Positions 6,125 through 56,082 of a stretch of DNA of 64,000 nucleotides are shown in pieces; positions within the stretch are counted from its first letter, which is position 1; the number at the start of each line of letters is the position of its first letter. The position numbers were made by a program, and so were the translations under genes. Origin of the DNA: an uncultured Pseudomonadales bacterium (lineage in GTDB: Bacteria; Patescibacteriota; Microgenomatia; UBA1400; PJMF01); NCBI GenBank assembly GCA_964437755.1, contig CAYTIA010000001.1, positions 45,658-109,657 on the forward strand, in the 5' to 3' direction. A model generated the notes under the pieces. The model ran no database searches. It saw only the letters and a program-made list of their open reading frames with translations, and was not told the DNA's origin.

Positions 6125-7456
6125 CTAGTAAATCTTTGGCAACGGATACTTCTTACACAGTTCTTTAATTATTTTTTTTGAATCTTTGACAGCTTTTGAT
6201 TTTTCGATCATCTTTTTTCTAACTGAAGCCTTCTTTTCTTGATCCGCTTGAATCTCATCTTTTAGCTTAATTTCAGCAAGATCATCAACAATGCTGTTCA
6301 TACATTTGGCTATGACTCTCATTTCTTTGGCACCCATTCCTCTAGTAGTAATTCCTGGTGTTCCCATTCTCATCCCAGACGGATAAAAGGGAGGATTTGG
6401 ATCATGAGGAACAGAGTTTCGATTAAGAACTATATTGGCTGCCTCAAATGCTTCAGCGACTGTATTCCCTAAAAGATTCTTGTTTGTTAAATCAATTAAG
6501 ATTAGATGGGTGTTGCTACCGCCAGCCACCAAATTAAAACCATATTTATTTAACTCATCAGCTAAAACTTGACTATTCTTTACAATCTTAGCTGCATACC
6601 TCTTGAAACGAGCTGTTTGTGCTTCTTTTAATGCAACTGCTATACCCGCTATGGCATTCATGTGTGGACCCCCCTGTAATCTTGGAAAAACCGCTTGGTC
6701 AACTCTTTTAGCTAACTCTGGATCCTTTTTTAGACCTTTGTTTGTAACCATAATCAAAGCACCTCTTGGACCTCGCAAGGTTTTGTGAGTAGTAGTGGTG
6801 ACTAAATGAACATAGGGTACAGGACTTGGATAAGCCTCTCCCGCAACTAGACCCGCTAAGTGAGCAATGTCAGCCATTAAAAAGGCGTTAATTTTTTTAG
6901 CTATCTTAGCAAACCTTGCCCAATCTACCTGAAGTGGATACGCAGTTATTCCTGCAACAATCACCTGTGGTTTTTCCTTTAGCGCCAGCTTCTCAATCGC
7001 TTGATAATCCATCTTGCCGTCTTTTCCCAAAGTATAAGAAACACTCTTGAAGAACATTGAGGAAACGGAAACCTTGGCACCATGAGTTAGGTGTCCTCCA
7101 TGAGCTAAATCTAGCCCCATAATTTTATCACCGGGTTTAATCATGGCAACGTACGCTGCTAAATTAGCCGGAGAGCCTGACAAGGCTTGCACATTAGCGT
7201 GAGGGACACCAAAAACTTTTTTTGCTCTTTCAATCGCCAAAGTCTCAATTTGGTCAACTACCCCTTGTCCTTGATAATATCTCTTAAATGGATAACCCTC
7301 AGCATATTTATTGCCCAGACAAGAACCAACAGCATCTAAAACAGCTTGAGAAGACATGTTTTCTGACGGGATCATCATTAAGGTTTCGGCTTGGCGTTTT
7401 TCTTCTGCTTTAATAAGAGAATGAATTTCTGAATCAGTTTGTTTGAGATGTTTCAT
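6125..7456 (-). CDS. glyA: serine hydroxymethyltransferase with ~35-aa Lys-rich C-terminal extension
   Basis: [34 protein letters not shown] and the PLP-Lys region [13 protein letters not shown]; the C-terminal tail [21 protein letters not shown] is extra. Confidence 0.9.
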
Positions 7457-7490
7457 ATGAACTCCTTGAGCTAATAAATAATTATTTTAC

Positions 7491-7516
7491 AAAAAAAGCA
7501 ACCATTTTGGTTGCCA
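7491..7516 (-). terminator. intrinsic-terminator-like hairpin plus U7 inside the glyA 5' leader (candidate attenuator)
   Basis: Minus-strand reading: GGCAACCAAAATGGTTGC followed by TTTTTTT, about 35 nt upstream of the glyA RBS AAGGAG; a TATAAT hexamer (plus 7584-7589, minus orientation) lies about 70 nt further upstream. Confidence 0.4.
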
Positions 7517-7638
7517 GTAGAGATACAGTTTATGAGATATGATGATATATATTTGATATTATTTTTATCAATCATCTGTAACCATTATACCGCAGAAAAA
7601 GATATAATCTAGTCTGATATATTGGAGCAATACTATCA

Positions 7639-8205
7639 ATGATTAAAGATAAAAAAGCCTCTATTAGAAGAAAAATGAAGATTATTAGAAATAATCTTTC
7701 AAAAAAAGAGCAACTAAAAAAATCTGATCTCATTTTAGATAACCTATTCTCGCTAGCCGAACTAGAAAAAGCACAAACAATCTTTACATATTTGTCATTT
7801 GGCAATGAGGTTGACACAGAAAAAATAAATAAAAAACTGTTAGAACAAAATAAAACAATCTGTGTTCCTAAAATAATAAACAAAAATATTCAACCGATAA
7901 TAATTTCTGATTTTGGAAATCTTGTAAAAAATGGATATGGCTACTTAGAACCAGTTTATGATTATCCTATAACCGACCATGTTAATCTCTGTATTACTCC
8001 TGGGTTAGCCTTCACTAAATCTGGTAAACGACTGGGTTATGGAGGAGGTTACTATGACAGATACTTCTCTTCTCATTCAAAAATTCTCAAAATTGCCCTA
8101 GCTTTTGAGGTTCAAATTCTAACAACATTACCGACAACTGATCAAGATCAATTAATTGACATTATTATTACAGAAAAAGAAATCATTAAATGTTATAAAA
8201 ATTAA
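7639..8205 (+). CDS. 5-formyltetrahydrofolate cyclo-ligase
   Basis: IRRKMKIIRNNLS...IFTYLSFGNEVDT...GLAFTKSGKRLGYGGGYYDRYF matches the MTHFS/YgfA family signature (GYGGGYYDR). Confidence 0.7.
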   Translation: MIKDKKASIRRKMKIIRNNLSKKEQLKKSDLILDNLFSLAELEKAQTIFTYLSFGNEVDTEKINKKLLEQNKTICVPKIINKNIQPIIISDFGNLVKNGYGYLEPVYDYPITDHVNLCITPGLAFTKSGKRLGYGGGYYDRYFSSHSKILKIALAFEVQILTTLPTTDQDQLIDIIITEKEIIKCYKN

Positions 8206-11608: not shown

Positions 11609-12448
11609 ATGAAAAGAGTGGTAAAGTGTTCATTGTGTTTTTACTATTTTCTGATTATTTTTTTACTAAAATCAAAAGTACATGCAAAAGTACTGATCAA
11701 CGAGGTATTGCCTTATCCCGAGGATGGAATTGAGACAATTGAAATTGTATATGTTCCAGATAATTCTCAGGATCAGAGCATAAATCTTGAGGGATGGAGC
11801 ATTTGGGATGAGCTAGCCACATCTTCCTGTCTTTATGTTTTTGGAAAGGAAACATTGACAGTTGGAGAGTATGTAATTAAAACATTTTCCAATAAACTTA
11901 ATAATTCTGCCGATGGAATTATCATTAAAAACCTAGAGGGAGAAGTGCAAGATTCGTTCTCATATTCTTCATCAGAAAAAGGATTAAGCTATTCTCGATT
12001 AAACTTTATCAATAATGACTTTATTCTCACTGTGCCAACATTAGGAGAAGAAAACATATTTATTGGTCCATCGATCACAACAACACCAACGCCAACCATT
12101 ATCGATCAAGCTACTCAGGAGATTTCCTCAACACCTAACTCACAACAAGATCATGACTCTTCAAAAACAGTGAGGCAAGAAGATGATCAACTAAAAAATG
12201 TAAATACAAACATTAATTTTGATGAGCTTTATCAAGATCAAGCTAGGCTGATTGAGAAAATCTCTAAACTCAAAGATATTATTGAAAAAGATACAAGTGT
12301 TGAGCCTCATTATGCAAAAAAATCCAACAGAGATGACTTTGTCGCTACTCTAGAGTATGGAACAACCTTCATATCAAGTATCGGAGTGGTTAGTGTTATA
12401 ATCGGAGGACTGTTTTTTTTGATTGCCAGTAGACTCATTTATGAATAA
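11609..12448 (+). CDS. Lamin-tail-domain (LTD) surface protein with signal peptide and C-terminal TM anchor
   Basis: VLINEVLPYPEDGIETIEIVYVP...INLEGWSIWDE matches the LTD signature (INEv ... EfIEL ... L.GW.l.D); Thr/Pro linker; C-terminal hydrophobic helix. Confidence 0.55.
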   Translation: MKRVVKCSLCFYYFLIIFLLKSKVHAKVLINEVLPYPEDGIETIEIVYVPDNSQDQSINLEGWSIWDELATSSCLYVFGKETLTVGEYVIKTFSNKLNNSADGIIIKNLEGEVQDSFSYSSSEKGLSYSRLNFINNDFILTVPTLGEENIFIGPSITTTPTPTIIDQATQEISSTPNSQQDHDSSKTVRQEDDQLKNVNTNINFDELYQDQARLIEKISKLKDIIEKDTSVEPHYAKKSNRDDFVATLEYGTTFISSIGVVSVIIGGLFFLIASRLIYE

Positions 12449-14633: not shown

Positions 14634-15611
14634 TTAGTTGGTGAGAGTTACTCCTTTTTTTTCTAATGCTTTTTCTACAATGCCAGCACTTTTTTCACCA
14701 ATATTTTTAACTTTTTCTATAACTCCCTTGTTTGATTTAGATAAATCTCCGACTGTCTTAAAACCACCCTTTCTTAAAGCGTTGGCTATTCTGGTAGGAA
14801 GATCTAGTTCCTCAACGGTCAATCTTAAAACTTCAGCCTCCTCAGGTGAAATTTCTTCGACTGGTTCCTCTTTTGGCATTTCCTGAGGATCAATTATTTG
14901 CGCAAACTGCCTAGATAATATTTTTGCAGCTTGTTCAATTGCCTCAAGAGGAGTAATAGTGCCATCAGTTTTTACATCTAATAACAACTTGTCATAATCG
15001 GTTCTTCTACCAACCCTAGTCGACTCAACTTTATATGAAACCGTCAAAACTGGAGAGAAAATACCATCAACCATTAACTCTCCAATCTCTTTGTCATTAA
15101 TAAGTCTTTCTCCAGCTTGATAACCAACTCCAGACTCTATCTTCATCTCAATGGAGAGCTTGATTTTACCAGTAACTGAAAATAAATATTGATCAGGATT
15201 AACAATTTCGTAACCGGCTTCACATTTTACATCGGCAGCAGTTACTTCTTTTGGACCCTCAACCTCTAATCTAGCAATTCCTGCCTCATTTCGATCAGCT
15301 CTAACTCTGATCATTTTTAGATTGAGCAAAATTTCCACCAAATCTTCTTTGATACCTTCAACGCTTGAGAATTGGTGATCAGCTCCCTCTATCTTTACTG
15401 AAGTAATGGCTGCTCCAGGTAATGAACTCAATAAAACTCTTCTTAAAGCATTTCCTAAAGTATGACCATAACCATTTTCCAATGGCTTGAAGATCAACAA
15501 TGAATGATCAGAAGCTTTTTTTTGCTCCTCAACCAAAAAGGTTGGGTTCATGAATGCATAGCTATTTAAATTTTGTGTCATGTTTTTCTCCTTGTTTCTC
15601 CTCCTTTTCAC
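14634..15611 (-). CDS. rpoA: DNA-directed RNA polymerase alpha subunit
   Basis: 325 aa; N-terminal domain and C-terminal domain (ELDLPTRIANALRKGGFKTVGDL); position after rpsD. Confidence 0.9.
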   Translation of the reverse strand: MKRRRNKEKNMTQNLNSYAFMNPTFLVEEQKKASDHSLLIFKPLENGYGHTLGNALRRVLLSSLPGAAITSVKIEGADHQFSSVEGIKEDLVEILLNLKMIRVRADRNEAGIARLEVEGPKEVTAADVKCEAGYEIVNPDQYLFSVTGKIKLSIEMKIESGVGYQAGERLINDKEIGELMVDGIFSPVLTVSYKVESTRVGRRTDYDKLLLDVKTDGTITPLEAIEQAAKILSRQFAQIIDPQEMPKEEPVEEISPEEAEVLRLTVEELDLPTRIANALRKGGFKTVGDLSKSNKGVIEKVKNIGEKSAGIVEKALEKKGVTLTN

Positions 15612-15665
15612 TTAAAAAGAGAAAAGAATCCGTTGCTTAGGATAATTTAATAAATTAATAATTTT

Positions 15666-16274
15666 TTATCGACTATAATACTCAACAATTAGCTGTTCTT
15701 CAATTTTTTCGGTAACATCAGTTCTCTGAGGATATCTTGATACTTTTGCTACATTATGTTTTCTTTCAAGCCACTCTGGAACAACATAGCTTTCATCAGA
15801 CATCACTTGGCTAACAGCAGGAATATTTAAAGAACCTTTCTTAATTTTAATCACATCGCCTTCCTTAACTAAATAAGAAGGAGCATTCATCTTTTTTTCA
15901 TTAACTTGAATGTGGTTATGACTTACCAACTGTCTAGCAGCTGCTCTAGTTGAAGCCCAGCCCAATCGATAAATCACATTGTCGAGACGACGTTCCAAGT
16001 TAATTAACAAAGCCTGACCAGTACTTTCTGAGCTACTCTTAGAAAGATCAAAAAGCTTTCTTAACTGTTTTTCCAAAATTCCATAAATGAATTTAACTCT
16101 TTGTTTAGCCTGAAGTTGAATACCATATTCAGATACTCTTCTGGTTCTTTTGTGTCCATGTTGTCCTGGACGAATATTAATTCTCTTGGCCGTTTTAAGA
16201 GCATTGGTTTTTAAACCAAGGTCTTCACCAATTCTTCTTTGCAATCTCTGTTTAGGTCCCGTATATCTTGCCAT
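15666..16274 (-). CDS. rpsD: 30S ribosomal protein S4
   Basis: MARYTGPKQRLQRRIGEDL start. Confidence 0.9.
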   Translation of the reverse strand: MARYTGPKQRLQRRIGEDLGLKTNALKTAKRINIRPGQHGHKRTRRVSEYGIQLQAKQRVKFIYGILEKQLRKLFDLSKSSSESTGQALLINLERRLDNVIYRLGWASTRAAARQLVSHNHIQVNEKKMNAPSYLVKEGDVIKIKKGSLNIPAVSQVMSDESYVVPEWLERKHNVAKVSRYPQRTDVTEKIEEQLIVEYYSR

Positions 16275-16295
16275 ATTATTAACTAATCAAAATTA

Positions 16296-16679
16296 TTAAT
16301 TTCTCTGTTTTCTAGGTCTAGTACCATTGTGAGGTTCTGGTGTCATATCAGCAATCATGGTTACCTCTACACCTTTCCCCCTTAATACTCTTAAAGCTAC
16401 TTCTCTTCCTGGTCCAGGACCCTTAATAAAAACCTCAGCTTGACGCATGCCATAATCAACAGCCTTCCCTACAGCATTTTCAGCTGCTACAGTTGCTGCA
16501 TAAGAGGTTGATTTTCTAGAACCCTTAAAACCAGAACTTCCAGTTGAAGACCAGGCAATAACATTTCCGCCTGCATCTGTCACGCTAACAAGGGTATTGT
16601 TAAAAGTTGCAGTAACATAAATTCTTGCAGTGTTTACAACTTTTGTAGATTTCTTTTTTTTACTGCTGTATTTTGCCAT
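16296..16679 (-). CDS. rpsK: 30S ribosomal protein S11
   Basis: [22 protein letters not shown]...[13 protein letters not shown]. Confidence 0.9.
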
Positions 16680-16701
16680 TTATTATTTCCTTTTATCTAA
16701 T

Positions 16702-17109
16702 CTAGTTTGTTACTGTTTTAGCAGCCTCCAACTTTGTAGCTACCTCTTTACTCAAAGCGCCAACTGTTTTTCTCTTTCCTTTTCTAGTCCTGGCATTTAC
16801 TCTAGTTCGCTGACCTCGAACTGGAAGTCCCATCATATGTCTAATGCCTCTATAAGCTTTAATTCTCTTTAAGCGTGTAATGTTGTCATTAATTTGCCTA
16901 CGAAGATCTCCTTCAGTTATGATATCCTCGATAACTTTCTGAAGAGTATTGATCTCTTGACCATCCAAATCTTTGGCTCTTTTATTAGGATCAATCTTCA
17001 CTTTTTTTACAATTTTCTTTGCGGTTGAAAGACCAATTCCATAAATATAAGCCAATGAATATGGAACTTTCTTTTCACCTGGAATATCAATACCTGCTAC
17101 ACGTGGCAT
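16702..17109 (-). CDS. rpsM: 30S ribosomal protein S13
   Basis: MPRVAGIDIPGEKKV start. Confidence 0.9.
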   Translation of the reverse strand: MPRVAGIDIPGEKKVPYSLAYIYGIGLSTAKKIVKKVKIDPNKRAKDLDGQEINTLQKVIEDIITEGDLRRQINDNITRLKRIKAYRGIRHMMGLPVRGQRTRVNARTRKGKRKTVGALSKEVATKLEAAKTVTN

Positions 17110-17112
17110 AGT

Positions 17113-17226
17113 TTAACCTTGTCTTTGTTTATGTTTAGGATTTTCACAGATTACTCTGACTATCCCATTTCTTTTAATAATTTTACACTTTGGACATCTC
17201 TTGCCCACCGATGAACTGACTTTCAT
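17113..17226 (-). CDS. rpmJ: 50S ribosomal protein L36 (37 aa; not in the supplied ORF track)
   Basis: Minus-strand translation [37 protein letters not shown] read directly; canonical position between infA and rpsM. Confidence 0.85.
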
Positions 17227-17260
17227 GTTACTCTTTATTAGTTTAACTTAATGTAATAAT

Positions 17261-17593
17261 TTAAAAATCTTTAATAATTTCTTTCTTTGTCGAGCGATAA
17301 GTGATTTTGCACTTACCTAAATCATATTTAGAAACATAACCTTTTACAATATCCCCTGGCATAACCCTAATTCTGTAAAGACGCATTCTACCAGATAATG
17401 TCCCCAATAATGTTTTACCAACCAACTCTTTAACTTCACTGTCAGTGACAGTAATCTCAAACATGGTGTTGGGTAGGCACTTGTCTACCTCACCGTAGAT
17501 ATCAAACCTGTCCCCACGAGCCTTAGAATCAGAACCAGAATCATCCTGTCTTTTTTCTTTAGCTGCTCTTTTATGTTGTTGTACTTTTCCCAT
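17261..17593 (-). CDS. infA: translation initiation factor IF-1 (with ~35-aa N-terminal extension)
   Basis: GEVDKCLPNTMFEITVTDSEVKELVGKTLLGTLSGRMRLYRIRVMPGDIVKGYVSKYDLGKCKITYR aligns to the IF-1 S1-like domain. Confidence 0.8.
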   Translation of the reverse strand: MGKVQQHKRAAKEKRQDDSGSDSKARGDRFDIYGEVDKCLPNTMFEITVTDSEVKELVGKTLLGTLSGRMRLYRIRVMPGDIVKGYVSKYDLGKCKITYRSTKKEIIKDF

Positions 17594-41281: not shown

Positions 41282-42301
41282 CTAGCGCAAGTAGTTATTA
41301 ATATTCTGATTATGTTCTTGTAGCGTCCTTCCGAAGTGGATTCTGCCGGAACTATCATGAATATAGTATAGATAATCTGAATATAGAGGATTCACTGAAG
41401 CCTCAAGTGCATCAAAACCTGGATTACAAATTGGAGCAGGAGGCAAACCTGGATTTTGATAGGTGTTATATCTAGAATCAATCTGTTTGTCAGCTGCTAA
41501 AGGAGTAGACCACCAAGTTTCAGTCTGTTCATTGAATCCTTTTGCATATTGAAGAGTTGCATCAACCTGAAGAGGCATTCCTAGTTCCAATCTCTTGAAA
41601 ATCACTCCAGCCACTCTCTTCATTTGATCTGAACCCTTTGCCTCTCTTTCAAGAAGTGAAGCTATCACAATTAACTCATCAACAGAGTACTCAGATTTTT
41701 CAATATCATCCGCAAGTGAAGCAATCTTTTTTTCAAAGGTGTTATTCATTAAAGAAATTAAGGCTTGAGTTGTAATCTCTTTAGGAACCAAATAAGTGTC
41801 AGGAAATAGCTTGCCTTCCATACCTACCGTCTGCAATAAAAATTCATCCTTATCAAAAAAAGCTAAATCATAACCTGAGAGACTTTGGGCTATCTCTTCT
41901 CTGCGAATGCCCTCTGGGAAAGTAATCCACACATCATCAGCCCCATCACTTAAAGTCTCTAAAATCTCTGCAAGACTCATTTTCTGGGAAAGCTCAAAAC
42001 TTCCAGCCTGAATATTGTATTTATCTTCATTTAATCTATAAAAGATTTGAAAAAGTTTAGAGTTTTTAATGAGATTATTTTCTTTAAGACGTTCAGCAAC
42101 TACTGTCACTGACTGTCCTCTTGGAACAACAAAACGAACTAGCTCTTTATTGTCTGAAGAAACTGGCTGAAGAAGCGATGCTATCACAATACTTACCACC
42201 ACGCCTACGATCATCAAAGTAACTAGCAAAAACAATGCAACTTTAAATACTAGACTTTTTTTCTTTTTATTGCTTGTTTTTTCTTCATTTTTTTTGAACA
42301 T
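41282..42301 (-). CDS. mltG: endolytic murein transglycosylase MltG (YceG-like)
   Basis: N-terminal TM then a YceG domain with YNTYQNPGLPPAPICNPG (conserved GLPP.PI motif). Confidence 0.75.
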   Translation of the reverse strand: MFKKNEEKTSNKKKKSLVFKVALFLLVTLMIVGVVVSIVIASLLQPVSSDNKELVRFVVPRGQSVTVVAERLKENNLIKNSKLFQIFYRLNEDKYNIQAGSFELSQKMSLAEILETLSDGADDVWITFPEGIRREEIAQSLSGYDLAFFDKDEFLLQTVGMEGKLFPDTYLVPKEITTQALISLMNNTFEKKIASLADDIEKSEYSVDELIVIASLLEREAKGSDQMKRVAGVIFKRLELGMPLQVDATLQYAKGFNEQTETWWSTPLAADKQIDSRYNTYQNPGLPPAPICNPGFDALEASVNPLYSDYLYYIHDSSGRIHFGRTLQEHNQNINNYLR

Positions 42302-42377: not shown

Positions 42378-42770
42378 CTATTGATAACTTATCCACTCTT
42401 CAAGAAAGAGAGAGGCAGCAAAATGATCAATCGGGCCAGAAATTCTCTTACCTCTTTCTTTCATCTTTTCTCTCACATCGTGAGAACTTAAAGTTTCGTC
42501 GATAAACTCTATGGGCAGATTAATTGTTTTAGTTAGTTGTTCACTAAATAATTTGGTCTGTTTGGCCATCTGCTGTTCTGAAATACCAAGTACCAGCTGA
42601 TTAACCTCATTTTCTTGACAAACTTGTTTAATTCTAGTTATAGCCTCTTCGATTTTTTGATACTCGATTACTTCCAAAGGAATGGCCAAGGAAGCAAAAG
42701 AAATTGCTAATCCGATTCTTTTCGTACCGTAATCAATTGCCAAAGCTTTAATATTTTCCATAATAACCAC
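42378..42770 (-). CDS. ruvX: putative pre-16S rRNA nuclease / Holliday-junction resolvase-like YqgF (RuvX)
   Basis: ALAIDYGTKRIGLAIS N-terminal RNase H-like motif; about 130 aa; true start probably at MENIK. Confidence 0.75.
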   Translation of the reverse strand: MVIMENIKALAIDYGTKRIGLAISFASLAIPLEVIEYQKIEEAITRIKQVCQENEVNQLVLGISEQQMAKQTKLFSEQLTKTINLPIEFIDETLSSHDVREKMKERGKRISGPIDHFAASLFLEEWISYQ

Positions 42771-42781
42771 TAAGCATAGTT

Positions 42782-43768
42782 TTAATCATCTCTAATTAAT
42801 TGAGCAGTTACTACTCCTCGACGAAGATATGTTCCCTCTGGAGTACAAGTAACTAATTTTAACTGTCTAACACCATAATCCTGAGAAAGGATAAAGGTAT
42901 CTGATGGCTTAACTTCAGTTTTGTCTTCTACAATATATGTATAACGAACATCTCCATAATGGAGATAAATTTTATCACCTCTTTCAAGAGTCATGATTGT
43001 ACTAAAAATTGAGTTATAGCGACGAGGATTCGATTCTTTAGGATTATAAAACTGTCTAAGTAGTGAGTGACCAAAGATAACTGGAGCTCCAGGCTTTCCT
43101 GGCAATGATGTGCCAGGATATTGAATTAAACTTTCCTCGAGATCCACTCCTCCAATTGTTACCACAGCGTTTTCTATTCCTAAATCTGGAATTTCCAAAA
43201 TATATTCCCCGCTTTGACGCGCTAACAAACTTGTGCGGTTAACAAGATCTGAGGCCATTTGATCTTCAAACCAGTTCGACAGATTTGTAAAATCAAGTTG
43301 AGCATCAACTATAACCGGACCGCGCTTAACTTTAGAAATGGCCTCAGCGTTATCAATACTGGCATAATCTTCTTGTAAACTTTGAGCTACTACCAGAGGC
43401 GTTACGTCCAGCACATTCTCCTGCGGAATTGGTAAAACAAGTTTTTCTGCCTTCGTCTGAGGAAGAGTCTTCACATAATAACCAACAACTGGCATAACGG
43501 CACTACCCAGTAACATAACCCCAACAAAGATTAACAAAATCGGCAACATATTTGCTCCAAACCTAACTAGTCTAGGCAAAGCATTGGCTAACGCAGCAGT
43601 TTGCTTTTCATCAATCTCTTCCTCAACCTTCTGAGCAACCATCATTCGGGTGAGCTTGTTTGTTACCTTTTCTTCTAAACCTTCATAGCTACCTTCTCTA
43701 AGCAACGCTTCGCGATATAGACGGATAAGTTCACGATGATCTAGGCCAATATGAGATTGATTTATCAT
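42782..43768 (-). CDS. sortase-family transpeptidase with ~70-aa cytoplasmic N-terminal extension and one TM
   Basis: Catalytic triad context: VIFGHSLL (His), LKLVTCTP (TLxTC Cys), YLRRGVV (Arg); TM LPILLIFVGVMLLGSAVMPVVGYYV. Confidence 0.65.
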   Translation of the reverse strand: MINQSHIGLDHRELIRLYREALLREGSYEGLEEKVTNKLTRMMVAQKVEEEIDEKQTAALANALPRLVRFGANMLPILLIFVGVMLLGSAVMPVVGYYVKTLPQTKAEKLVLPIPQENVLDVTPLVVAQSLQEDYASIDNAEAISKVKRGPVIVDAQLDFTNLSNWFEDQMASDLVNRTSLLARQSGEYILEIPDLGIENAVVTIGGVDLEESLIQYPGTSLPGKPGAPVIFGHSLLRQFYNPKESNPRRYNSIFSTIMTLERGDKIYLHYGDVRYTYIVEDKTEVKPSDTFILSQDYGVRQLKLVTCTPEGTYLRRGVVTAQLIRDD

Positions 43769-43815: not shown

Positions 43816-46011
43816 CTATTGTTTAATATCAAGTTTAATTTTTTCTATATTTGACGGCATCTTCTTAAAGATTGAGTTTGCAAAAGATGGCGTAAACTCA
43901 AACTTAACTTCAGACACTTCTTCGAGTTGAGTTAATTTTGAACTCACCTCATCAATTTGTAAATTTGGGAGATCTTTGATTAGAGAATCTGGATCAACTT
44001 TTGCTTGAGCCTTTCCTTCTAGTTTAGCCTCAATTTTTAGTTGAGAGTCACCATCTTCTTCTGATTCAATTAGTTTTGAGTCAACCTTTAGGCCATTGTC
44101 CACAAACTCATAATTTTCAGGAACGTCATCAGCTAAAACCACTCGTGCTAAATCGAGCAAATCTTGATTCGTGTAAGAAAGTCCGTTAACCTCTATTTTT
44201 AACGATAGGCTGACTTCGTTTGCTTCATCACCAATCTCTGCACTATATTCTTGAGAAATAATTTTAAACTCTTCAGTTGGAACTATGTGCAGATCAATTT
44301 TTTGAGATTCAAGCATCTCGTCTCTGGCTTTTTTAAGCAATTTTTGTCTTAGGGTTGTTAATAGCTCCTGATAATCAGCTTCAGAAACCACTCTAATTTC
44401 TCTACTAGAACCACCGGTAAAGTTATCCACTGCTTTGGCTGAATAGGTCTCAGTAGAAAAAGACTCTATCTTAAAATCTGTGTCCTTGGAGATATTGCTT
44501 TCTGTGCCAATTTCCTTAGCCACAACCCTTACATTCTTCTGACCGTACTCTCTCTTTTCGCTATCTCCAGTGCTACTCACCTCAACTTTTGAAGCTGGTA
44601 CTTTTACTTCTGCATCAAGAATAAACTCTAATGATCCAGCATAAACAACTGTACCTTTATCGAAAGTTTTATCCGAATCAGTTTTGTTTAAAATTCTTAT
44701 TTCTCCACTAGCTTTTTCACCAACTTGCTTCATACCCGTAGTTAGAGTTGATTCATCTCCAGACATCTCCTCACTTATTTTTTCGGCTTTTAGAAGATTC
44801 AGTTTAGGATCAGACTTTGCGATACTGGGGTCAAGAAAAATATTTAACTCCTTATCTAAGCGGTGAACACTTGGTTGAACTGCTACAACCACTTGATAGC
44901 TACTCTTAAGCAAAATAAAAGAAACAAACAAAGATACTAATAAGCCAAGAATTACGGCAACCGCAATTATTAACCTGATTTTTTGCTTCTTAGTTGGTTT
45001 TTTCTTTTTCGAAATTTGAGGAGAATTTTTCGTTGATGATGGCACCACGTTTTGGCCACCAATTTTTGAACCTTCTTGGTCAACAGCAATTGGCACCCCA
45101 AAACTTGTGGCAACAGCAGTATCTTTTGTCGGAGAAGTGATGTTGGCTGAACTCGGAACCGCCAACGAATCGGACAATAACTCAGTTTTCTCTTCATCAG
45201 CAAACTCATCATCCTCAGACTCAAAACTCATATCAACTTCTTTTGTGATTAATCCGCTATCCTTTGCCACAGCAACTCCCCCTTGTTTTACTACTGCCTC
45301 CAACACCTCTCTTGACTTAACCACCTCTACAACCGGCTGCTGAATAAAGCCATATTCGCCCACCCAATCAATTGACAATAGTTGCTGTTGATATAAAACT
45401 AAACTTTCATCCTCGACAGAGGCAGAGGCCAAAACAATATTTAGAGGAAATTTTTTTCCAGTTTTTTCAAGATCACCATTTAAACGAGCCAAAACTTCTT
45501 GAATATCCAAAAGAATGTTTTCAGACCTACCCACAGATAATGTCTTCTGAACTTGACCCTGGTGAAGTACATTTAAAGTTAAAGAGGTAGACCCAAGATA
45601 AACCACCAAAGCTGAAAGGTAATGATTATCGTTGGTTAGATGATTGATTAGCGCCTCAGTGCTTAATACAAACCCCACTGCCTCTAAAGACAATGATTTA
45701 CAAAGTTCTTGCAATCTCTCATCGTGAGGTACTTTTATTTCTGTTTGTGTTGCCCACTCTGGCTCAAGTGCAAACAAAACTTGATCAGTTTTTTCGGACT
45801 CTTTTCCCAGATCTTGTAAACTCTCATCACATTGAATCAATTGATCGTCCTCAGACTGATAATATCGAATGGGGGATTGATTGAGAATATGAACTTGCCC
45901 CTCAACTATTCTCCACAAGGCAGAGCTTACAGAGATATCAGTAAGAAGTAAAGAAATAAATAACTCGTTGTTATTTTTTTTATTTTTTAAAAAAACGTTT
46001 GGCAGGCCCAT
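43816..46011 (-). CDS. FtsA/PilM-like actin-fold domain fused through a single TM helix to a ~360-aa extracytoplasmic domain
   Basis: N-terminus KNNNELFISLLLTDISVSSALWRIVEGQ resembles the FtsA start NNNELYVSLDIGTSNTKVIVGE; second phosphate-like region ALVVYLGSTSLTLNVLHQGQV resembles FtsA IDIGGGSTTIAVFQNG; TM IRLIIAVAVILGLLVSLFVSFILL at about residue 345; C-terminal domain with no recognisable family. Confidence 0.45.
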   Translation of the reverse strand: MGLPNVFLKNKKNNNELFISLLLTDISVSSALWRIVEGQVHILNQSPIRYYQSEDDQLIQCDESLQDLGKESEKTDQVLFALEPEWATQTEIKVPHDERLQELCKSLSLEAVGFVLSTEALINHLTNDNHYLSALVVYLGSTSLTLNVLHQGQVQKTLSVGRSENILLDIQEVLARLNGDLEKTGKKFPLNIVLASASVEDESLVLYQQQLLSIDWVGEYGFIQQPVVEVVKSREVLEAVVKQGGVAVAKDSGLITKEVDMSFESEDDEFADEEKTELLSDSLAVPSSANITSPTKDTAVATSFGVPIAVDQEGSKIGGQNVVPSSTKNSPQISKKKKPTKKQKIRLIIAVAVILGLLVSLFVSFILLKSSYQVVVAVQPSVHRLDKELNIFLDPSIAKSDPKLNLLKAEKISEEMSGDESTLTTGMKQVGEKASGEIRILNKTDSDKTFDKGTVVYAGSLEFILDAEVKVPASKVEVSSTGDSEKREYGQKNVRVVAKEIGTESNISKDTDFKIESFSTETYSAKAVDNFTGGSSREIRVVSEADYQELLTTLRQKLLKKARDEMLESQKIDLHIVPTEEFKIISQEYSAEIGDEANEVSLSLKIEVNGLSYTNQDLLDLARVVLADDVPENYEFVDNGLKVDSKLIESEEDGDSQLKIEAKLEGKAQAKVDPDSLIKDLPNLQIDEVSSKLTQLEEVSEVKFEFTPSFANSIFKKMPSNIEKIKLDIKQ

Positions 46012-46089: not shown

Positions 46090-48033
46090 CTAATCGATGT
46101 TTTTTTCTACTTGTCGAACATAGACCCTTCTTACTCCTGAAGCAGCCGATTTTTCTTTAAAGATTTCAATTTGGCCAATCTGCCCCGTTGATAAAACATG
46201 AGGACCACCACATAACTCTTTTGAAATAAAAGCCCCGTTATCCAACTGCATTTTTTTATCAGAGTTTTTATCAAGTAAACCAATTAAGTATACTGAAACT
46301 TCATCAGGATAACGCTCTGCAAAAAATGCTAAAGCTCCAGATTCTAATGCTTCTTGCTTGTTCATAATTATTTTTTTAACTGGAAGATCTTGGGAAACCC
46401 AGTCATTAATCTGATTTTGAATCAGATCAATTTGCTCCTGAGTTAAAGCCTGAGGGTGTGAGAAGTCAAATCTTAAACGATCAGCAGAAATATTTGACCC
46501 CTTTTGCTGAACATGATTACCCAACACCTTTCTGAGGGCGGCATGCAGTAAATGAGTCGCGGTGTGATAAGCAGTGGTTATATCAGAATGATCAGCTAAT
46601 CCACCTTTAAACTTATTATTTGAAGTGGAACGAGAGTGAGATATGTGTGCTTGCTTAGCAAGTAAAAATTCCTCTTCAAAACTTTCAGATATTAAGATCT
46701 GCTGTGTCTTTGCCTCCTCTTGCAATACCTCTAAAGGAAAACCATAAGTTTCATAAAGATGATAAGCCTGAGAACCTGAAAATTTTTTATCTGTTGATGC
46801 CATCTTCATAAACTCTTTTAATCCTTTATTTAAAGTTTTGCCAAATTTGATGCATTCATTTTCGATTTCATTTTTAATTCTTGCTTGATTATCAGCCAAT
46901 TCAGGATACTGATCTTGGTATATTTCTACTACTACCCCAACCAATTCAGGCAAAATTTTAGTTGTAGAGGAAAGATATCTTTCTTGTCTAATGGCTCTAC
47001 GCAGCAATCTACGAACTAAATAACCTTGATCCTTGTTGCTTGGCTTAACACCATCGCCAATCAAAAATACTGCAGCCTTTAAATGGTCTGCGATTACTCT
47101 GAATTTAGAGAGGTGGTCATTATATTTTTTTTCTGATAACTGCTCAATTTTTTCAATAATCGGAGCAAATAAGTCAGTCTGAAAAATATCTGGTTGATCT
47201 TGTAAAACTGCTAAAATTCTTTCTAAACCTCCTCCAAAATCTATATTTTTTTGAGATAGATCAACCAAACCATGCTCAGTTTTTTGATACTGCATAAACA
47301 CGCTGTTTCCAATTTCAAGGAATCTACCACAATCGCAGTTTACATGACAAGGCTGATCGGAAAATTCTGATTTTTCGTGGAATTGATGCTCAGCCCCAAA
47401 ATCGTAAAAGATCTCGCTACTTGGACCACCTGGTTCTCCAGAAGGCATTAAGTCAGGTTCTCCAGCTCTTGACCACCAATTCTTTTTTGAGGAGTATAAA
47501 AGAATGTGAGGTTGATGATTCTCGTTAAATCCACTTTTCTCTGGATTTGGATCAATCTCAGCCTTAATGCCTTTTTGTGCAAATAAGTTTTGCCAAATTT
47601 CAATCGCTTCTTGATCTCTTTCAAGTTGATATTTATTATCTCCAGCAAAAACCGTCACAAAAATTTTATTGGCATCTAAACCTACCACTTCAGTTAAAAA
47701 CTCAAAAATCCAACTCAACTGTTCCTTTTTAAAATAATCTCCAAGTGACCAGTTACCCAACATTTCAAAGAAAGTGGTGTGACGATTGTCTCCCACTTCT
47801 TCAATATCTTGAGCTCTAAAACACTTTTGAGAGTTTGCCAAACGTGATCCTTCAGGATGTTTCTGTCCAAGCAGATAAGGCATAATTGGCTGCATACCAG
47901 CTGTTGTAAAAAGTGTGGTTGGATCATTATCGGGAACCAAAAGTGCTGAAGGAATAATCTGGTGCGATTTTTGTTTCAAAAAATCAAAATAGGCTGTTCT
48001 TAGTTGACTGGCAGAGAAATTTTTTTTATACAT
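46090..48033 (-). CDS. alaS: alanine--tRNA ligase (647 aa; catalytic, tRNA-recognition and editing domains, lacks C-Ala domain)
   Basis: N-terminus LVPDNDPTTLFTTAGMQP; editing-domain HTATHLLHAALRKVLGNHVQQKGS and CGGPHV. Confidence 0.85.
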   Translation of the reverse strand: MYKKNFSASQLRTAYFDFLKQKSHQIIPSALLVPDNDPTTLFTTAGMQPIMPYLLGQKHPEGSRLANSQKCFRAQDIEEVGDNRHTTFFEMLGNWSLGDYFKKEQLSWIFEFLTEVVGLDANKIFVTVFAGDNKYQLERDQEAIEIWQNLFAQKGIKAEIDPNPEKSGFNENHQPHILLYSSKKNWWSRAGEPDLMPSGEPGGPSSEIFYDFGAEHQFHEKSEFSDQPCHVNCDCGRFLEIGNSVFMQYQKTEHGLVDLSQKNIDFGGGLERILAVLQDQPDIFQTDLFAPIIEKIEQLSEKKYNDHLSKFRVIADHLKAAVFLIGDGVKPSNKDQGYLVRRLLRRAIRQERYLSSTTKILPELVGVVVEIYQDQYPELADNQARIKNEIENECIKFGKTLNKGLKEFMKMASTDKKFSGSQAYHLYETYGFPLEVLQEEAKTQQILISESFEEEFLLAKQAHISHSRSTSNNKFKGGLADHSDITTAYHTATHLLHAALRKVLGNHVQQKGSNISADRLRFDFSHPQALTQEQIDLIQNQINDWVSQDLPVKKIIMNKQEALESGALAFFAERYPDEVSVYLIGLLDKNSDKKMQLDNGAFISKELCGGPHVLSTGQIGQIEIFKEKSAASGVRRVYVRQVEKNID

Positions 48034-49828: not shown

Positions 49829-50473
49829 TTAGAACTTAACATAAACAGTTCTTTGTTTAAGGGTAGATCGCCCTCGTTGATCTACCGCCTCAATGGTAAT
49901 TGTACTTATCCCTTCTCTTGGTAAATAAACTTCAGTTTTAAATGAACCATCTGGCTGAATAGCAACCGGCTGAGCATTTACACTTAAGATCGCTTCACTT
50001 TCTGTAGTCCCACTAATAATAATTTGTGAAGAAACAAACTCATTTTCTTCTGGAGAATAGATTTCTAATGAGGGAGGCTTATTAAGGTTATACCATTGAA
50101 CACCAATGTACCCCACCAAAGATAAAAAGATTGCTGCAAAAATTACTACAATCAAGATAATGGGGCGCCATTGTTTTTGCCTGGCAGATACTGGTCGAAT
50201 GTACTGACGCAATAATAATTTTCCGCTTTTATTTTCTTGATAATCTCGACGAAGAATAGCCAACAATGACTTTTGATCTAAATTTAGGACTCTTGCATAA
50301 GATTTAATAAAACCCTTTACAAAAACAGACGATGGCAGCTTATCAAACTGGTTTTTTTCAAGTGCTTGAAGATACTCAATTTTAATTCGAGTTACTTGAG
50401 AAAGTTCAGTCAGAGTAATTCTCTGCTTTTGTCTTTCGTCTGCTAAGATTTGACCAATCTTTTTGGTTTGCAT
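49829..50473 (-). CDS. RodZ-like protein (N-terminal XRE-type HTH, single TM, C-terminal extracytoplasmic domain)
   Basis: HTH ILADERQKQRITLTELSQVTRIKIEYLQALEKNQFDKLPSSVFVKGFIKSYARVLNLD is the RodZ N-terminal signature; TM IILIVVIFAAIFLSLVGYIGV. Confidence 0.55.
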   Translation of the reverse strand: MQTKKIGQILADERQKQRITLTELSQVTRIKIEYLQALEKNQFDKLPSSVFVKGFIKSYARVLNLDQKSLLAILRRDYQENKSGKLLLRQYIRPVSARQKQWRPIILIVVIFAAIFLSLVGYIGVQWYNLNKPPSLEIYSPEENEFVSSQIIISGTTESEAILSVNAQPVAIQPDGSFKTEVYLPREGISTITIEAVDQRGRSTLKQRTVYVKF

Positions 50474-53116: not shown

Positions 53117-53890
53117 ATGCCCCAAACCCAACTTAACGCCATAATTTTAGCTGCTGGATATGGCACTCGCTTAAAGGAAGTTGGCGAGAAGACAGCCAAA
53201 GGTCTTTTTAAAAACCGTGACAATTTTTCTATTCTTGATTTAGTTTTACTTAAATTAATAAAAAATCAAGCCATCAATCAAGTTGCTTTAGTTACCAACA
53301 ATCGCTTTCACTCTCAATACAAAAATCATCTTTCATCAAAATATCCAAACACCAAGATTAACATTATTAATGATGGCTCAACTAAACCAGAAAATAGATT
53401 AGGCTCATTGGGAGATTTGCACTTTGCGGTGGATCAGCTGAACTGGTGGGATAAAGACTTGTTAGTTTTACCCAGTGATAGAACTCCCGAAAATATTATC
53501 TCTGCTTTAGTATCAGACTTTAAAAACAACTCCAACTCATTTGTTGTTGGAGTTGTGAAAGAATCCAAAGAAAAGATTAAAAATAAATCGGGCTGTGTGG
53601 TGCTTAATAAACACAATAACGTTGTGGATTTTGAAGAGAAGCCAGCAAACCCAAAAAGTAATTATTTGGCCCTTCCTTTTTATATTTTTCCCAGACAAAC
53701 TCTCTCATTGCTTAAAAAATATAAAACTCAAAAAAATAATATGGATTCTCCAGGAAATATTGTTCCTTGGCTAATTACTCAAAACTTTCCCGTCAAAGCT
53801 TGTTTGACAGCAAAAAAATCGTTCGACATTGGCAATCTTGAGGAGTTAGAAAGTTTCCAGAAAGAATATTCGCTAAAAAACAACTCTTAA
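53117..53890 (+). CDS. sugar-phosphate nucleotidyltransferase (NTP_transferase fold)
   Basis: N-terminal AIILAAGYGTRL (G-x-G-T-R-L pyrophosphorylase signature); 257 aa. Confidence 0.6.
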   Translation: MPQTQLNAIILAAGYGTRLKEVGEKTAKGLFKNRDNFSILDLVLLKLIKNQAINQVALVTNNRFHSQYKNHLSSKYPNTKINIINDGSTKPENRLGSLGDLHFAVDQLNWWDKDLLVLPSDRTPENIISALVSDFKNNSNSFVVGVVKESKEKIKNKSGCVVLNKHNNVVDFEEKPANPKSNYLALPFYIFPRQTLSLLKKYKTQKNNMDSPGNIVPWLITQNFPVKACLTAKKSFDIGNLEELESFQKEYSLKNNS

Positions 53891-56082
53891 CTCTCTTGTT
53901 GAGTTTGAGCTATATATGCCTGAATTTGAGCCGGGTTTACTTCTCTTGGCTTGCTTCCTTCAGGAGGTCCAATTAAATTAGCTTCATACATCTGATCTAA
54001 TATTCTGGCAGCGCGGTTATAACCTATGCTCAACCTTCTTTGTAATAATGAAGCCGAGGCTTTACCACCTTTTTGAAATACCTTAACCGCTTCATCAAAG
54101 AGATCATCTATCTCATCTGTTCCACCAAACTCTCCAGATTCTTTTGCAGTAAATTTACTAGTTATCTCCTCTTCATAGTTAGGTTCATTTCCATGAGCCT
54201 TGAGATAATCAATAAGGGCTTTCGTTTCTTTTGGATCAACAAAAGTACCCTGAACACGAACAGGTTTAGCTTTATCTGGAGAAAGGAAAAGCATATCTCC
54301 TCGACCCAAAAGTTTTTCAGCTCCTGGAGAGTCAAGAATGACCCTCGAATCTGTCAAGGAAGAAACATTAAAAGCAATTCTAGCTGGTACATTAGCTTTA
54401 ATTAATCCAGTAATAACATCTACTGAAGGTCGTTGAGTTGATAACACCAAGTGAATTCCAACCGCTCTCGCCATCTGAGCAATTCTGGTAACGGAAGATT
54501 CAACATCACCAGGAGCAAACAACATAATATCAGCCATCTCATCAATGAAGATCACCAAATTTGGCATCGCCGCCAAACCTGCTAACTCGTTATAACTAGC
54601 TATATCTTTAACCCCTACTTCTTGCAAAAGCTTGTATCTTTTTTCCATCAAATGCTCCACCCACTTAAGTGCCGAAACAACTTTTTTCGGCTCCACTATC
54701 ACCGGTGTAAGCAAGTGAGGAATGCCGTTGTACTGAGTTAACTCAACTCTTTTTGGATCAACCAAGATTAAGTTTAACTCTGAAGGACTGGCTCTAAACA
54801 GCAAAGAGCTTAAAAAAGTATTGATACAAACAGATTTTCCTGAACCAGTTGAACCTGCTATTAACATATGTGGCATACGAGAAATATCTACTATTACCGA
54901 GTTTCCCGCCACATCAATTCCCAATCCAACAGCTAACTTTGACGGATGTTTTTTAATTGCTGATGAACCCAAAATTTCTTTAAGAGTTACATAAGAAGGA
55001 GATCTATTTGGCACCTCGATTCCAACTAGAGATCTACCTGCTATTGGCGCCTCAATTCTAATCTGTCCAGTTGGAGCAGCTAAAGCCATTGCTAAATCAG
55101 TAGAAAGGCTAGTAATTCTTGAAAGTTTGGTACCACGAGTAACTTGCAGTGCATATTGAGTCACTGAAGGTCCATAATTAACTTCCTTAACCTCTGCATG
55201 AATACCAAAAGATTGAAGGGCACTCTCAATAATATCTGCATTTTGATTCACATCACCCCTATCCGCCTCACCACCTTTTTGATCTGAAAGCAAAGACAAT
55301 GGAGGATAATCCCAAACTAATGGCATATTGCTTGGGGTTAATAAACTCTCGGATTGGATATCGGCCACTTCTCCATCTTTAGATTTATTTTTCAAGTTAA
55401 TGGGTAAAACTGGTTGAGTTGGGTCGACGGCAGTACCTGTTTGATCGTCACCAATGCCCTGTTTTGCCAAATCCGGTTGACCGACTTTAATTTGTTTTTC
55501 TTTTCCTGGAAGCCATATTTTTGGAATAAGGCCTTTTTTCTTTTTTTCTTTTGCATCCTCAACTTTAGCATTGAGTTTGTTTTCTTGATACAGCTGATAT
55601 TTTTCAATCAATGCTTTGATCAAAGTCACTAAAGATGCTTGCAAGGTGATGAGAATGCCAATCGTCATCAAACCACCCGCGATTACCATTGAACCAGCTG
55701 GGCCAACTAATCTTGATAAATTATCATAAGTGTTTAAACCAATATCTCCAGTTGAAAACGCAATCATTACTGAGAGCATCATAATCAACAATCCCAACAG
55801 AACATTGGGCTCACCCCATTTCCAGTTAGTGTGAAGCATTACCAAACCAGAGGAAGCAAAAATAATTGGCAACAAAAAGATTGATATACCTAACTTATTT
55901 GTTAAAAATGTATTTACCTGTTGTAACACCTCACCTTGGCCTGTAAAAGAAACCAGAATAAGTAAAGCCACCAACATTAAAAGCACTGCCACGATTGAGT
56001 GCAGTGTTTGAGTCTCAATCTTTAATTTGATTGGTTGAACTTTTGATCTTCTTTTTTGTTTTTTACTTTTTCTCTTAGGCAT
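53887..56082 (-). CDS. ftsK: DNA translocase FtsK/SpoIIIE
   Basis: N-terminal polytopic membrane domain, linker, motor domain with Walker A GSTGSGKSVCINTFLSSLLF and a C-terminal gamma-like winged-helix region. Confidence 0.85.
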   Translation of the reverse strand: MPKRKSKKQKRRSKVQPIKLKIETQTLHSIVAVLLMLVALLILVSFTGQGEVLQQVNTFLTNKLGISIFLLPIIFASSGLVMLHTNWKWGEPNVLLGLLIMMLSVMIAFSTGDIGLNTYDNLSRLVGPAGSMVIAGGLMTIGILITLQASLVTLIKALIEKYQLYQENKLNAKVEDAKEKKKKGLIPKIWLPGKEKQIKVGQPDLAKQGIGDDQTGTAVDPTQPVLPINLKNKSKDGEVADIQSESLLTPSNMPLVWDYPPLSLLSDQKGGEADRGDVNQNADIIESALQSFGIHAEVKEVNYGPSVTQYALQVTRGTKLSRITSLSTDLAMALAAPTGQIRIEAPIAGRSLVGIEVPNRSPSYVTLKEILGSSAIKKHPSKLAVGLGIDVAGNSVIVDISRMPHMLIAGSTGSGKSVCINTFLSSLLFRASPSELNLILVDPKRVELTQYNGIPHLLTPVIVEPKKVVSALKWVEHLMEKRYKLLQEVGVKDIASYNELAGLAAMPNLVIFIDEMADIMLFAPGDVESSVTRIAQMARAVGIHLVLSTQRPSVDVITGLIKANVPARIAFNVSSLTDSRVILDSPGAEKLLGRGDMLFLSPDKAKPVRVQGTFVDPKETKALIDYLKAHGNEPNYEEEITSKFTAKESGEFGGTDEIDDLFDEAVKVFQKGGKASASLLQRRLSIGYNRAARILDQMYEANLIGPPEGSKPREVNPAQIQAYIAQTQQES

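Follow-up and report, generated by a model that had tools for sequence, protein, structure and literature searches.

Does a gene that couples a degenerate FtsA-like domain to a large outer domain encode a division protein, a pilus or secretion component, or something else? The question is raised by an open reading frame (ORF) in a 64,000-nucleotide stretch of DNA, here called the window, that covers positions 45,658 to 109,657 of contig CAYTIA010000001.1 (assembly GCA_964437755.1; GTDB lineage Patescibacteriota, Microgenomatia, UBA1400, PJMF01). The ORF lies at 43816..46011 on the minus strand. From the sequence it had been predicted to encode an FtsA/actin-like ATPase domain connected by a transmembrane helix to an extracytoplasmic domain, as in an FtsA-FtsQ/DivIB or PilM-PilN/O fusion, and it was suggested that the protein could link a cytoplasmic filament to the envelope. 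The best explanation overall, to which we assign a probability of about 0.55, is that the product is a single-pass membrane scaffold, and that the gene was made by fusion from a two-gene module of the Candidate Phyla Radiation (CPR). We have high confidence in the structural and evolutionary statements, and the results show the anatomy of the protein, its topology, the loss of motifs, the homology of each half and the synteny.

The gene and its family

Translation reproduced the predicted ORF exactly (43816..46011, minus strand, ATG start, 731 amino acids), and the coordinates of the sub-parts given below were checked in the same way. The product is a bitopic membrane protein, in which a degenerate FtsA/PilM-like domain of the ASKHA (acetate and sugar kinases/Hsc70/actin) fold is followed by a linker, a transmembrane helix and a Baseplate_J-like ectodomain. 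Judged by its full-length homologues, which make up at least 164 clusters and are 26-91% identical to the query, the ORF is a real gene.

A word-indexed search returned 27 relatives, every one from a Microgenomates-type metagenome-assembled genome (MAG) and either unnamed or annotated as "hypothetical", and a word-indexed profile search found only two more. When 1.84 billion cluster representatives (clusters defined at 50% identity) were searched exhaustively with the profile, 10,264 matched at E <= 1e-3, of which 2,483 reached E <= 1e-30; the top 150, ~700-800 amino acids long, nearly all span the protein from end to end. In the 164-member alignment purifying conservation spans the entire protein, and the GC content of the gene region is ordinary. 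When the single protein and the full-length profile were compared with Pfam, NCBIfam and the sequences of the PDB, nothing was found for the N-terminal domain. Pfam gave, on the whole protein, a spurious Wzz/GNVR match confined to the transmembrane helix and sub-threshold GlxA-barrel and Baseplate_J matches at residues 431-540. In two loci the gene is broken into two ORFs (L011, 5932-8229, and L054, 5143-7328), by a frameshift, as a pseudogene or through an assembly error.

The N-terminal domain

Residues 1-262 were modeled with AlphaFold2 from an alignment of 21 sequences. The model was of good quality (predicted local distance difference test, pLDDT, 88; predicted template modeling score 0.84), with low confidence (pLDDT <50) at residues 1-13 and 259-262. 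Because its topology is beta-beta-beta-alpha-beta-alpha-beta-alpha, twice over, the model confirms an ASKHA/actin fold, composed of two RNase-H-like halves, for residues 17-251 (45259..45963, minus strand). FtsA was the top structural match of this domain and PilM structures scored almost equally, so that in the model the nearest subfamily is FtsA/PilM, by a modest margin. The model and the structural matches thus bear out the fold that had been proposed. The proposed extent of ~340 residues was too large, the folded part ending at residue 251 and giving way to a presumably disordered linker.

The folded domain has ~235 residues compared with ~380 in FtsA. Alignment of its family with a family of FtsA-like proteins from the CPR (see below) by hhalign matched residues 6-244 with a probability of 96.8% (E 3.1e-10), and left gaps of ~100 residues at the position of subdomain 1C and of ~45 residues at that of 2B of the FtsA-like proteins. 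No structural elements beyond the ASKHA core were seen in the model. The N-terminal domain of the fused protein is a minimal version of the fold that has lost subdomains 1C (the SHS2 insert) and 2B. In FtsA, 2B is the site where the FtsZ peptide binds, and 1C serves FtsN binding and polymer contacts.

Conservation of the nucleotide-binding motifs was studied in the alignment of the 164 full-length family members. In the phosphate-1 motif a hydrophobic residue replaces Asp at position 22. In phosphate-2, position 138 is Y, E, Q or L instead of Asp, and the GGG run (residues 140-142) has become G/S/T-A/E/Q-T/Q/E, whereas the GGG of the adenosine motif (residues 195-198) is replaced by A/F-S-L/A-S/V. 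The degeneration noticed in the single sequence is therefore a property of the family: to judge by the alignment, the Asp and Gly residues of all three motifs were lost in every lineage sampled. What is conserved in the domain is a different signature, V160-G-R-S-x(5)-D169-x-x-E172-x-L-A-R176, with D169 present in 100% of the members, together with W86, G113, P189, W216 and P226. The N-terminal peptide M-x-L-P-N-L-F (residues 1-8; 45988..46011, minus strand) is moderately conserved (L 71%, P 62%, N 46%, F 67%) and presumably flexible.

Since the nucleotide motifs are absent across the 164 members, we infer that the domain is a pseudo-ATPase, which would neither bind nor hydrolyze ATP. Dynamic filament formation by a domain having no nucleotide site and no FtsA-type subdomains for polymer, FtsN or FtsZ contacts is unlikely; the suggested link to a cytoplasmic filament is accordingly doubtful, and a role as filament or FtsZ tether is unsupported.

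Linker, membrane helix and topology

The linker (residues 252-345; 44977..45258, minus strand) is variable, acidic and Ser-rich, as seen from its charge count and from the gap-rich columns in which it aligns poorly, and is presumably disordered. It ends in a polybasic stop-transfer stretch, SKKKKPTKKQK. Amid this variable region a short motif, S303-F-G-V/I-P-I/V (SFGVPI, residues 303-308; 45088..45105, minus strand), is ~80% conserved among the 164 members (S 78%, F 79%, G 81%, P 85%). It is a conjectural docking peptide, suggested by its conservation.

The only strongly hydrophobic segment of the protein is at residues 346-368 (RLIIAVAVILGLLVSLFVSFILL; 44908..44976, minus strand), where hydropathy reaches its maximum (mean Kyte-Doolittle value 3.0). 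Its flanks follow the positive-inside rule. Because the N-terminal flank contains eight Lys/Arg and no acidic residue while the C-terminal flank is net neutral, the predicted orientation is N-in/C-out, with the N-terminal domain in the cytoplasm and the C-terminal 363 amino acids outside. The protein therefore has, as originally predicted, a true transmembrane helix where FtsA has an amphipathic one, and the cytoplasmic-transmembrane-extracytoplasmic arrangement is supported by hydropathy and flank charges; an outside location of the N-terminal domain was not predicted. The unfused relatives described below keep an amphipathic tail.

The possibility that the 731-residue protein is itself a sortase substrate was ruled out, as it terminates in ...EKIKLDIKQ and has at its C-terminus neither an LPXTG-type motif nor a hydrophobic segment.

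The ectodomain

The extracytoplasmic domain (residues 369-731; 43819..44907, minus strand) is 363 amino acids long and acidic (70 Asp and Glu versus 48 Lys and Arg), in agreement with the original prediction, which described its fold as unknown. A model of residues 368-731 (22 sequences, pLDDT 90) is all-beta for ~170 residues from the membrane onward, and then consists of long helices alternating with long hairpins. In Foldseek comparisons it aligned with whole baseplate proteins of 346-386 amino acids over 347-360 of 364 columns (E 5e-7 to 5e-6, probability 1.0). Since these alignments run from end to end, the order of domains is common to the ectodomain and the baseplate proteins; the angles between domains differ, which is reflected in a template modeling score of about 0.22. 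The best matches are all baseplate proteins of phages, pyocins or extracellular contractile injection systems (eCIS).

Profile comparisons pointed the same way. The C-domain (A3) profile had a single match in the PDB, diffocin TRI-2 (E 8.6e-4), and the partner proteins of the split form (see below) matched PHROG 6, "baseplate wedge subunit" (E 6e-8). Pfam matches were located in a beta-barrel of the Baseplate_J or GlxA-barrel type at residues 431-540 (44392..44721, minus strand; GlxA E 6e-5, Baseplate_J E 0.08), which holds most of the invariant residues (G431, G436, N442, G502, N506, G533-G534-S536). With 12.6 bits the query missed the gathering threshold of Baseplate_J (PF04865), which is 21.1 bits; weak matches to this family (E <1) were present in 18 of 25 relatives, and one of the split-form partners, with 23.1 bits, cleared the cut-off. 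These observations show that the ectodomain is homologous in structure to Baseplate_J wedge proteins along its full length, and its fold can be assigned to the Baseplate_J/gp47/TRI-2 type.

No structures of FtsQ/DivIB, PilN/PilO or GspL/M were among the fold matches of the ectodomain. An FtsQ/POTRA (polypeptide-transport-associated) identity was ruled out, the domain being all-beta right after the membrane helix and FtsQ/DivIB being absent from the top matches, and so was a PilN/PilO identity, for which the coiled-coil plus ferredoxin-like organization is missing. Neither type of outer domain that had been suggested is thus found here. The ectodomain shares fold and domain order with the wedge proteins of the Baseplate_J/gp47/TRI-2/T4 gp6 type (PF04865; 8V3W, 9EUF, 8KEA, 9KI1), but differs from them in being membrane-anchored and joined to a cytoplasmic domain, in the orientation of its sub-domains, and in its genetic context: no contractile tail or injection-system genes were found near the locus, and sheath, tube and spike genes were likewise absent.

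A split form of the same module

Synteny was surveyed in one genome per GTDB species, which gave 71 loci, with ORFs classed by BLASTP against the proteins of the window. The fused form was present in 67 of these, in genomes labeled Woese-, Pace- or Daviesbacteria or carrying placeholder names, in the order alaS, fused gene, sortase, ruvX, yceG, rpoB. The combination of actin fold, membrane helix and outer domain thus recurs in related CPR genomes. In L006 two ORFs without Pfam match interrupt this order: one of 504 amino acids (6430-7944) separates alaS from the fused gene, and one of 776 amino acids (15231-17561) separates ruvX from yceG.

A split form was found in the four other species loci and in L005, L078 and L079, from WWE3, Saccharibacteria, Kazan, Peregrinibacteria and other Patescibacteria. 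Here alaS is followed by an FtsA-like protein of ~400-417 amino acids, a membrane protein of 505-611 amino acids and ruvX. In the split loci with informative downstream sequence (L005, L072, L073, L076, L077 and L078) ruvX comes next and there is no sortase; among the split species loci this holds for 4 of 4.

The FtsA-like protein has what the fused protein lacks, namely the motifs DLGT, DIGGGxTD and SGGGA, subdomains 1C and 2B, and a conserved amphipathic basic helix, GILRRVVRxMQ, at the C-terminus. It matches the Pfam families FtsA, PilM_2 and MreB, and its family matches FtsA (E 8.5e-22) and PilM (E 2.4e-19) in the PDB. NCBI labels it "cell division FtsA domain-containing protein", and the annotations of JGI and NCBI together are FtsA or FtsA-domain. 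The partner (P0027-P0029 type) consists of a cytoplasmic domain of ~85 amino acids, a linker, one transmembrane helix and a Baseplate_J-like ectodomain, and P0028 aligns with the C-terminal half of the fused protein (E 1.2e-33). Residues 1-85 of P0027, P0028 and P0029 form an alpha/beta-looking domain without Pfam match (e.g. MKLKAIYLDASNDLYSTLGKIERLDAEEVVLVIPKSS...), which is absent from the fused proteins.

This two-gene module, exemplified by MFH1088567.1 and the downstream MFH1088566.1, is the true next of kin of the fused protein. Both halves have their homologue in it (hhalign E 3e-10 for the actin-fold part, hmmsearch E 1e-33 for the ectodomain), in the same slot between alaS and ruvX, and for this reason the fused gene most likely arose by the joining of two adjacent genes of a widespread CPR module. 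The module differs in being two proteins, in having an intact ATPase with 1C, 2B and amphipathic tail and a partner with the ~85-residue cytoplasmic domain, and in not being followed by a sortase gene. Fusion would accordingly have been accompanied by the shedding of 1C, 2B, the ATP site, the amphipathic tail and the small domain of the partner, and by the gain of a sortase gene.

Two loci of the FtsA-like gene have unusual surroundings. In L076 (71-7727, a Saccharibacteria MAG) the split pair is directly downstream of a 720-residue VirD4/TraG/HerA-like ATPase and two ORFs without Pfam match, and alaS is not adjacent to it. On the Patescibacteria contig of L080 (1-7254), genes for type IV pilins and a prepilin peptidase directly precede alaS and the FtsA-like gene; the latter is followed by secF instead of a Baseplate_J-like partner gene.

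The sortase and other neighboring genes

In the window alaS (46090..48033), the 731-codon gene, a sortase gene (42782..43768), ruvX (42378-42770), yceG/mltG (41282-42301) and rpoB follow each other in one direction, on the minus strand, with intergenic gaps of 11-78 nucleotides. The window annotation bears out the predicted placement between alaS and sortase-ruvX. The upstream neighbor alaS is kept in the fused and split forms alike, and ruvX and yceG/mltG are conserved downstream neighbors. No terminator-like intergenic site was found before the end of yceG in a terminator scan, although promoter and terminator scans both performed at chance level. Separation from ftsZ and pilus genes was confirmed for the scanned ORFs of the window, which include neither ftsA or ftsZ nor any pilus gene; the ribosomal-protein/rpoC stretch at ~13-37 kb lies outside the scan.

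The sortase (328 amino acids; Pfam Sortase E 1.6e-18) is encoded immediately 3' of the fused gene in all 65 species-level loci with enough downstream sequence. Its catalytic residues are intact, with His in GHS, Cys in LVTCTP and Arg in LRRG, and its layout comprises a cytoplasmic N-terminus, a transmembrane helix and the catalytic domain. The N-terminal extension of ~190 amino acids, examined in the window protein and in L007-L075, contains two conserved elements, a cytoplasmic L..LYRQALL (residues 13-23) and, before the catalytic domain, an extracellular LDYTNLSNWF. Elsewhere in the window, at 11609-12448 on the plus strand, a lamin-tail-domain protein with a C-terminal hydrophobic anchor (...ATLEYGTTFISSIGVVSVIIGGLFFLIASRLIYE) and without LPXTG is encoded, which could be the substrate of a sortase recognizing a non-canonical motif.

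Other neighbors are also of the envelope type. At 49829-50473 (minus strand) a RodZ-like protein is encoded, which has an HTH_25 domain (helix-turn-helix, HTH; E 1e-21), a transmembrane helix and a Glucodextran_B-type beta domain (E 2e-10), and which recurs, a few kb from alaS on its upstream side, in nearly every locus of the fused form. RodZ contacts the actin-like MreB through its HTH domain, and because of this the RodZ-like protein is a candidate partner of the actin fold. An FtsK/SpoIIIE translocase (53887-56082, minus strand), by coincidence also of 731 amino acids, is encoded 8 kb upstream, and is kept at that distance in a 45%-identical relative (L001).

Across the whole window (1-64000) nearly all ORFs of at least 150 amino acids are on the minus strand, and the GC skew of the plus strand is negative almost throughout, about -0.05 to -0.25. 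The pattern recalls a strand composition disparity that is reported for a Microgenomates genome (PMC7143001).

Alternative explanations

The fused protein could be the Microgenomates orthologue of FtsA, serving in the divisome as a tether of FtsZ or another filament and signaling to the outer domain. It has the ASKHA fold in common with FtsA (S. aureus 3WQT, E. coli 7Q6D, T. maritima 1E4F), which tops the structural matches of its N-terminal domain; in subdomains, ATP motifs, amphipathic helix and database labels the unfused relatives from this chromosomal slot resemble true FtsA; and FtsK, the RodZ-like protein, MltG and Mur ligases are neighbors fitting envelope growth or division. However, identity to FtsA is only 9-12%, the fused protein has a real transmembrane helix and a 363-residue ectodomain unlike POTRA/FtsQ, and 2B, 1C (SHS2) and the Asp/Gly nucleotide motifs are all gone. 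Moreover, in all loci examined neither the fused nor the split gene adjoins ftsZ or the division and cell wall (dcw) cluster. We regard orthologous function as unlikely. It is quite unlikely, too, that the protein is a PilM-PilN or GspL-type inner-membrane platform of a type IV pilus, a competence or secretion machine or some other CPR appendage. PilM (5EOU, 2YCH, 3JC8), although it scores almost level with FtsA, binds ATP and carries a 1C-like subdomain, and the outer part of PilN is a coiled coil with a ferredoxin-like domain, whereas that of the fused protein is Baseplate_J-like. The N-terminal peptide of PilN binds PilM (PDB 2ych, 5eou), and the juxtamembrane SFGVPI recalls this peptide; one split locus is just downstream of pilin and prepilin-peptidase genes and another beside a VirD4/TraG-like ATPase gene. 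Against such a platform, no pilN, pilO or pilus ATPase genes, and no PilB, PilC, PilT or secretin genes, were found in the scanned window ORFs or, as far as tested, in the 65 fused loci, and a Microgenomates genome is reported to keep PilM in its single type IV pilus locus (PMC7143001).

GspL/EpsL is the closest known architecture, with a cytoplasmic actin-like domain, a single transmembrane helix and an outer domain. Abendroth et al. reportedly observed in 2004 that the actin-like domain of GspL binds no nucleotide. This domain has been called an 'unusual member' of the superfamily, and GspL, in which a single helix links the cytoplasmic domain to an outer dimerizing domain, is described as a scaffold joining cytoplasmic and periplasmic parts and is held equivalent to fused PilM and PilN (PMC6233222). 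A degenerate actin-like domain combined with membrane helix and outer domain is thus the architecture of GspL. This speaks for a pilus or secretion platform, and GspL is also the nearest working precedent for a protein of this build that acts as a scaffold. The two proteins differ in that GspL has a ferredoxin-like outer domain, retains an SHS2-type insert in its cytoplasmic domain, binds the ATPase GspE and is encoded in gsp operons of diderms; the fused gene has no gsp or pil operon and no GspE-type ATPase gene beside it, and the coiled-coil plus ferredoxin-like organization of PilN/PilO/GspL/GspM is lacking from its ectodomain. Finally, given that the ectodomain finds its best matches exclusively among the baseplate proteins of phages, pyocins or eCIS, it might stem from a domesticated or decaying prophage or contractile-injection gene, linked to the actin fold by accident in the course of genome reduction. 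This is hardly credible: the housekeeping position among alaS, ruvX, mltG and rpoB is kept in about 70 species, conservation extends along the whole protein, GC content is ordinary, further phage genes are not found nearby, and no relatives were found in the viral contigs of IMG/VR. These findings effectively refute a prophage remnant as the nature of today's gene; the baseplate-type domain may have been recruited in the distant past.

Several points also weigh against a scaffold derived by gene fusion. The adjacency of the sortase gene shows co-inheritance and, probably, co-transcription, which are not the same as physical or functional coupling, and no canonical LPXTG sortase substrate was found in the window. 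The loss of ATP binding is read from motifs, and the conserved D62, E73, S163, D169 and E172 could form a non-canonical site. The structure predictions cover single domains, and all partners are candidates. The direction of the change, fusion and not fission, is deduced from the distribution of the two forms rather than from a rooted tree. Lastly, the small cytoplasmic domain of the split-form partner is absent from the fused protein, so the fusion cannot have been a simple read-through.

Proposed role and significance

As to function, it is possible, though we propose it tentatively, that the fused protein acts together with the sortase in assembling the envelope or surface, as a transmembrane scaffold that needs no ATP. 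In such a scaffold the actin-fold domain would be a cytoplasmic module for protein docking or dimerization, as in GspL and the peptide-binding PilM. It might bind the SFGVPI motif in the linker of the protein, the conserved LxxLYRQALL at the N-terminus of the sortase, or the HTH domain of its RodZ-like neighbor. On the outside of the membrane the ectodomain would form oligomers, in the manner of baseplate wedge proteins, and the complex would position the probably co-transcribed sortase, and perhaps also MltG and the RodZ-like protein, to assemble the cell surface or cell wall.

More speculatively, the alaS-linked FtsA-like ATPase and the baseplate-wedge-like membrane protein might be the core of an unrecognized envelope-spanning machine of Patescibacteria, whose Microgenomates version became ATP-independent by fusion and has its own sortase. 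If, in addition, these genomes have no other FtsA, the fused protein would be the sole FtsA descendant of the lineage and hence a novel kind of anchor for division or envelope assembly, with an outer part forming a baseplate-like ring in the wall.

No description of the fused-protein family was found in the literature on CPR, FtsA, sortase, actin-like or baseplate J topics, and Pfam and NCBIfam have no model for the N-terminal domain or for the whole protein. The principle of a degenerate actin-like domain with membrane helix and outer domain is already known from GspL. What appears to be new is the combination of a baseplate-wedge ectodomain with an obligatory sortase, together with the existence of a split module across the CPR.

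Much of bacterial diversity belongs to the CPR/Patescibacteria, whose ways of building an envelope and dividing are largely mysterious. A large family whose members are all labeled "hypothetical" (>2,400 clusters at E <= 1e-30) now has a domain map, a predicted topology, a probable split-to-fused origin and an invariant sortase partner. It would offer a natural case of an actin-fold ATPase turned into a pseudo-enzyme scaffold, in parallel to the step from PilM and PilN to GspL, and it shows that cells use a baseplate-wedge fold outside any contractile injection system. Since some Saccharibacteria, a group in which the split form occurs, can be cultivated and genetically manipulated, the biology of the module is directly testable.

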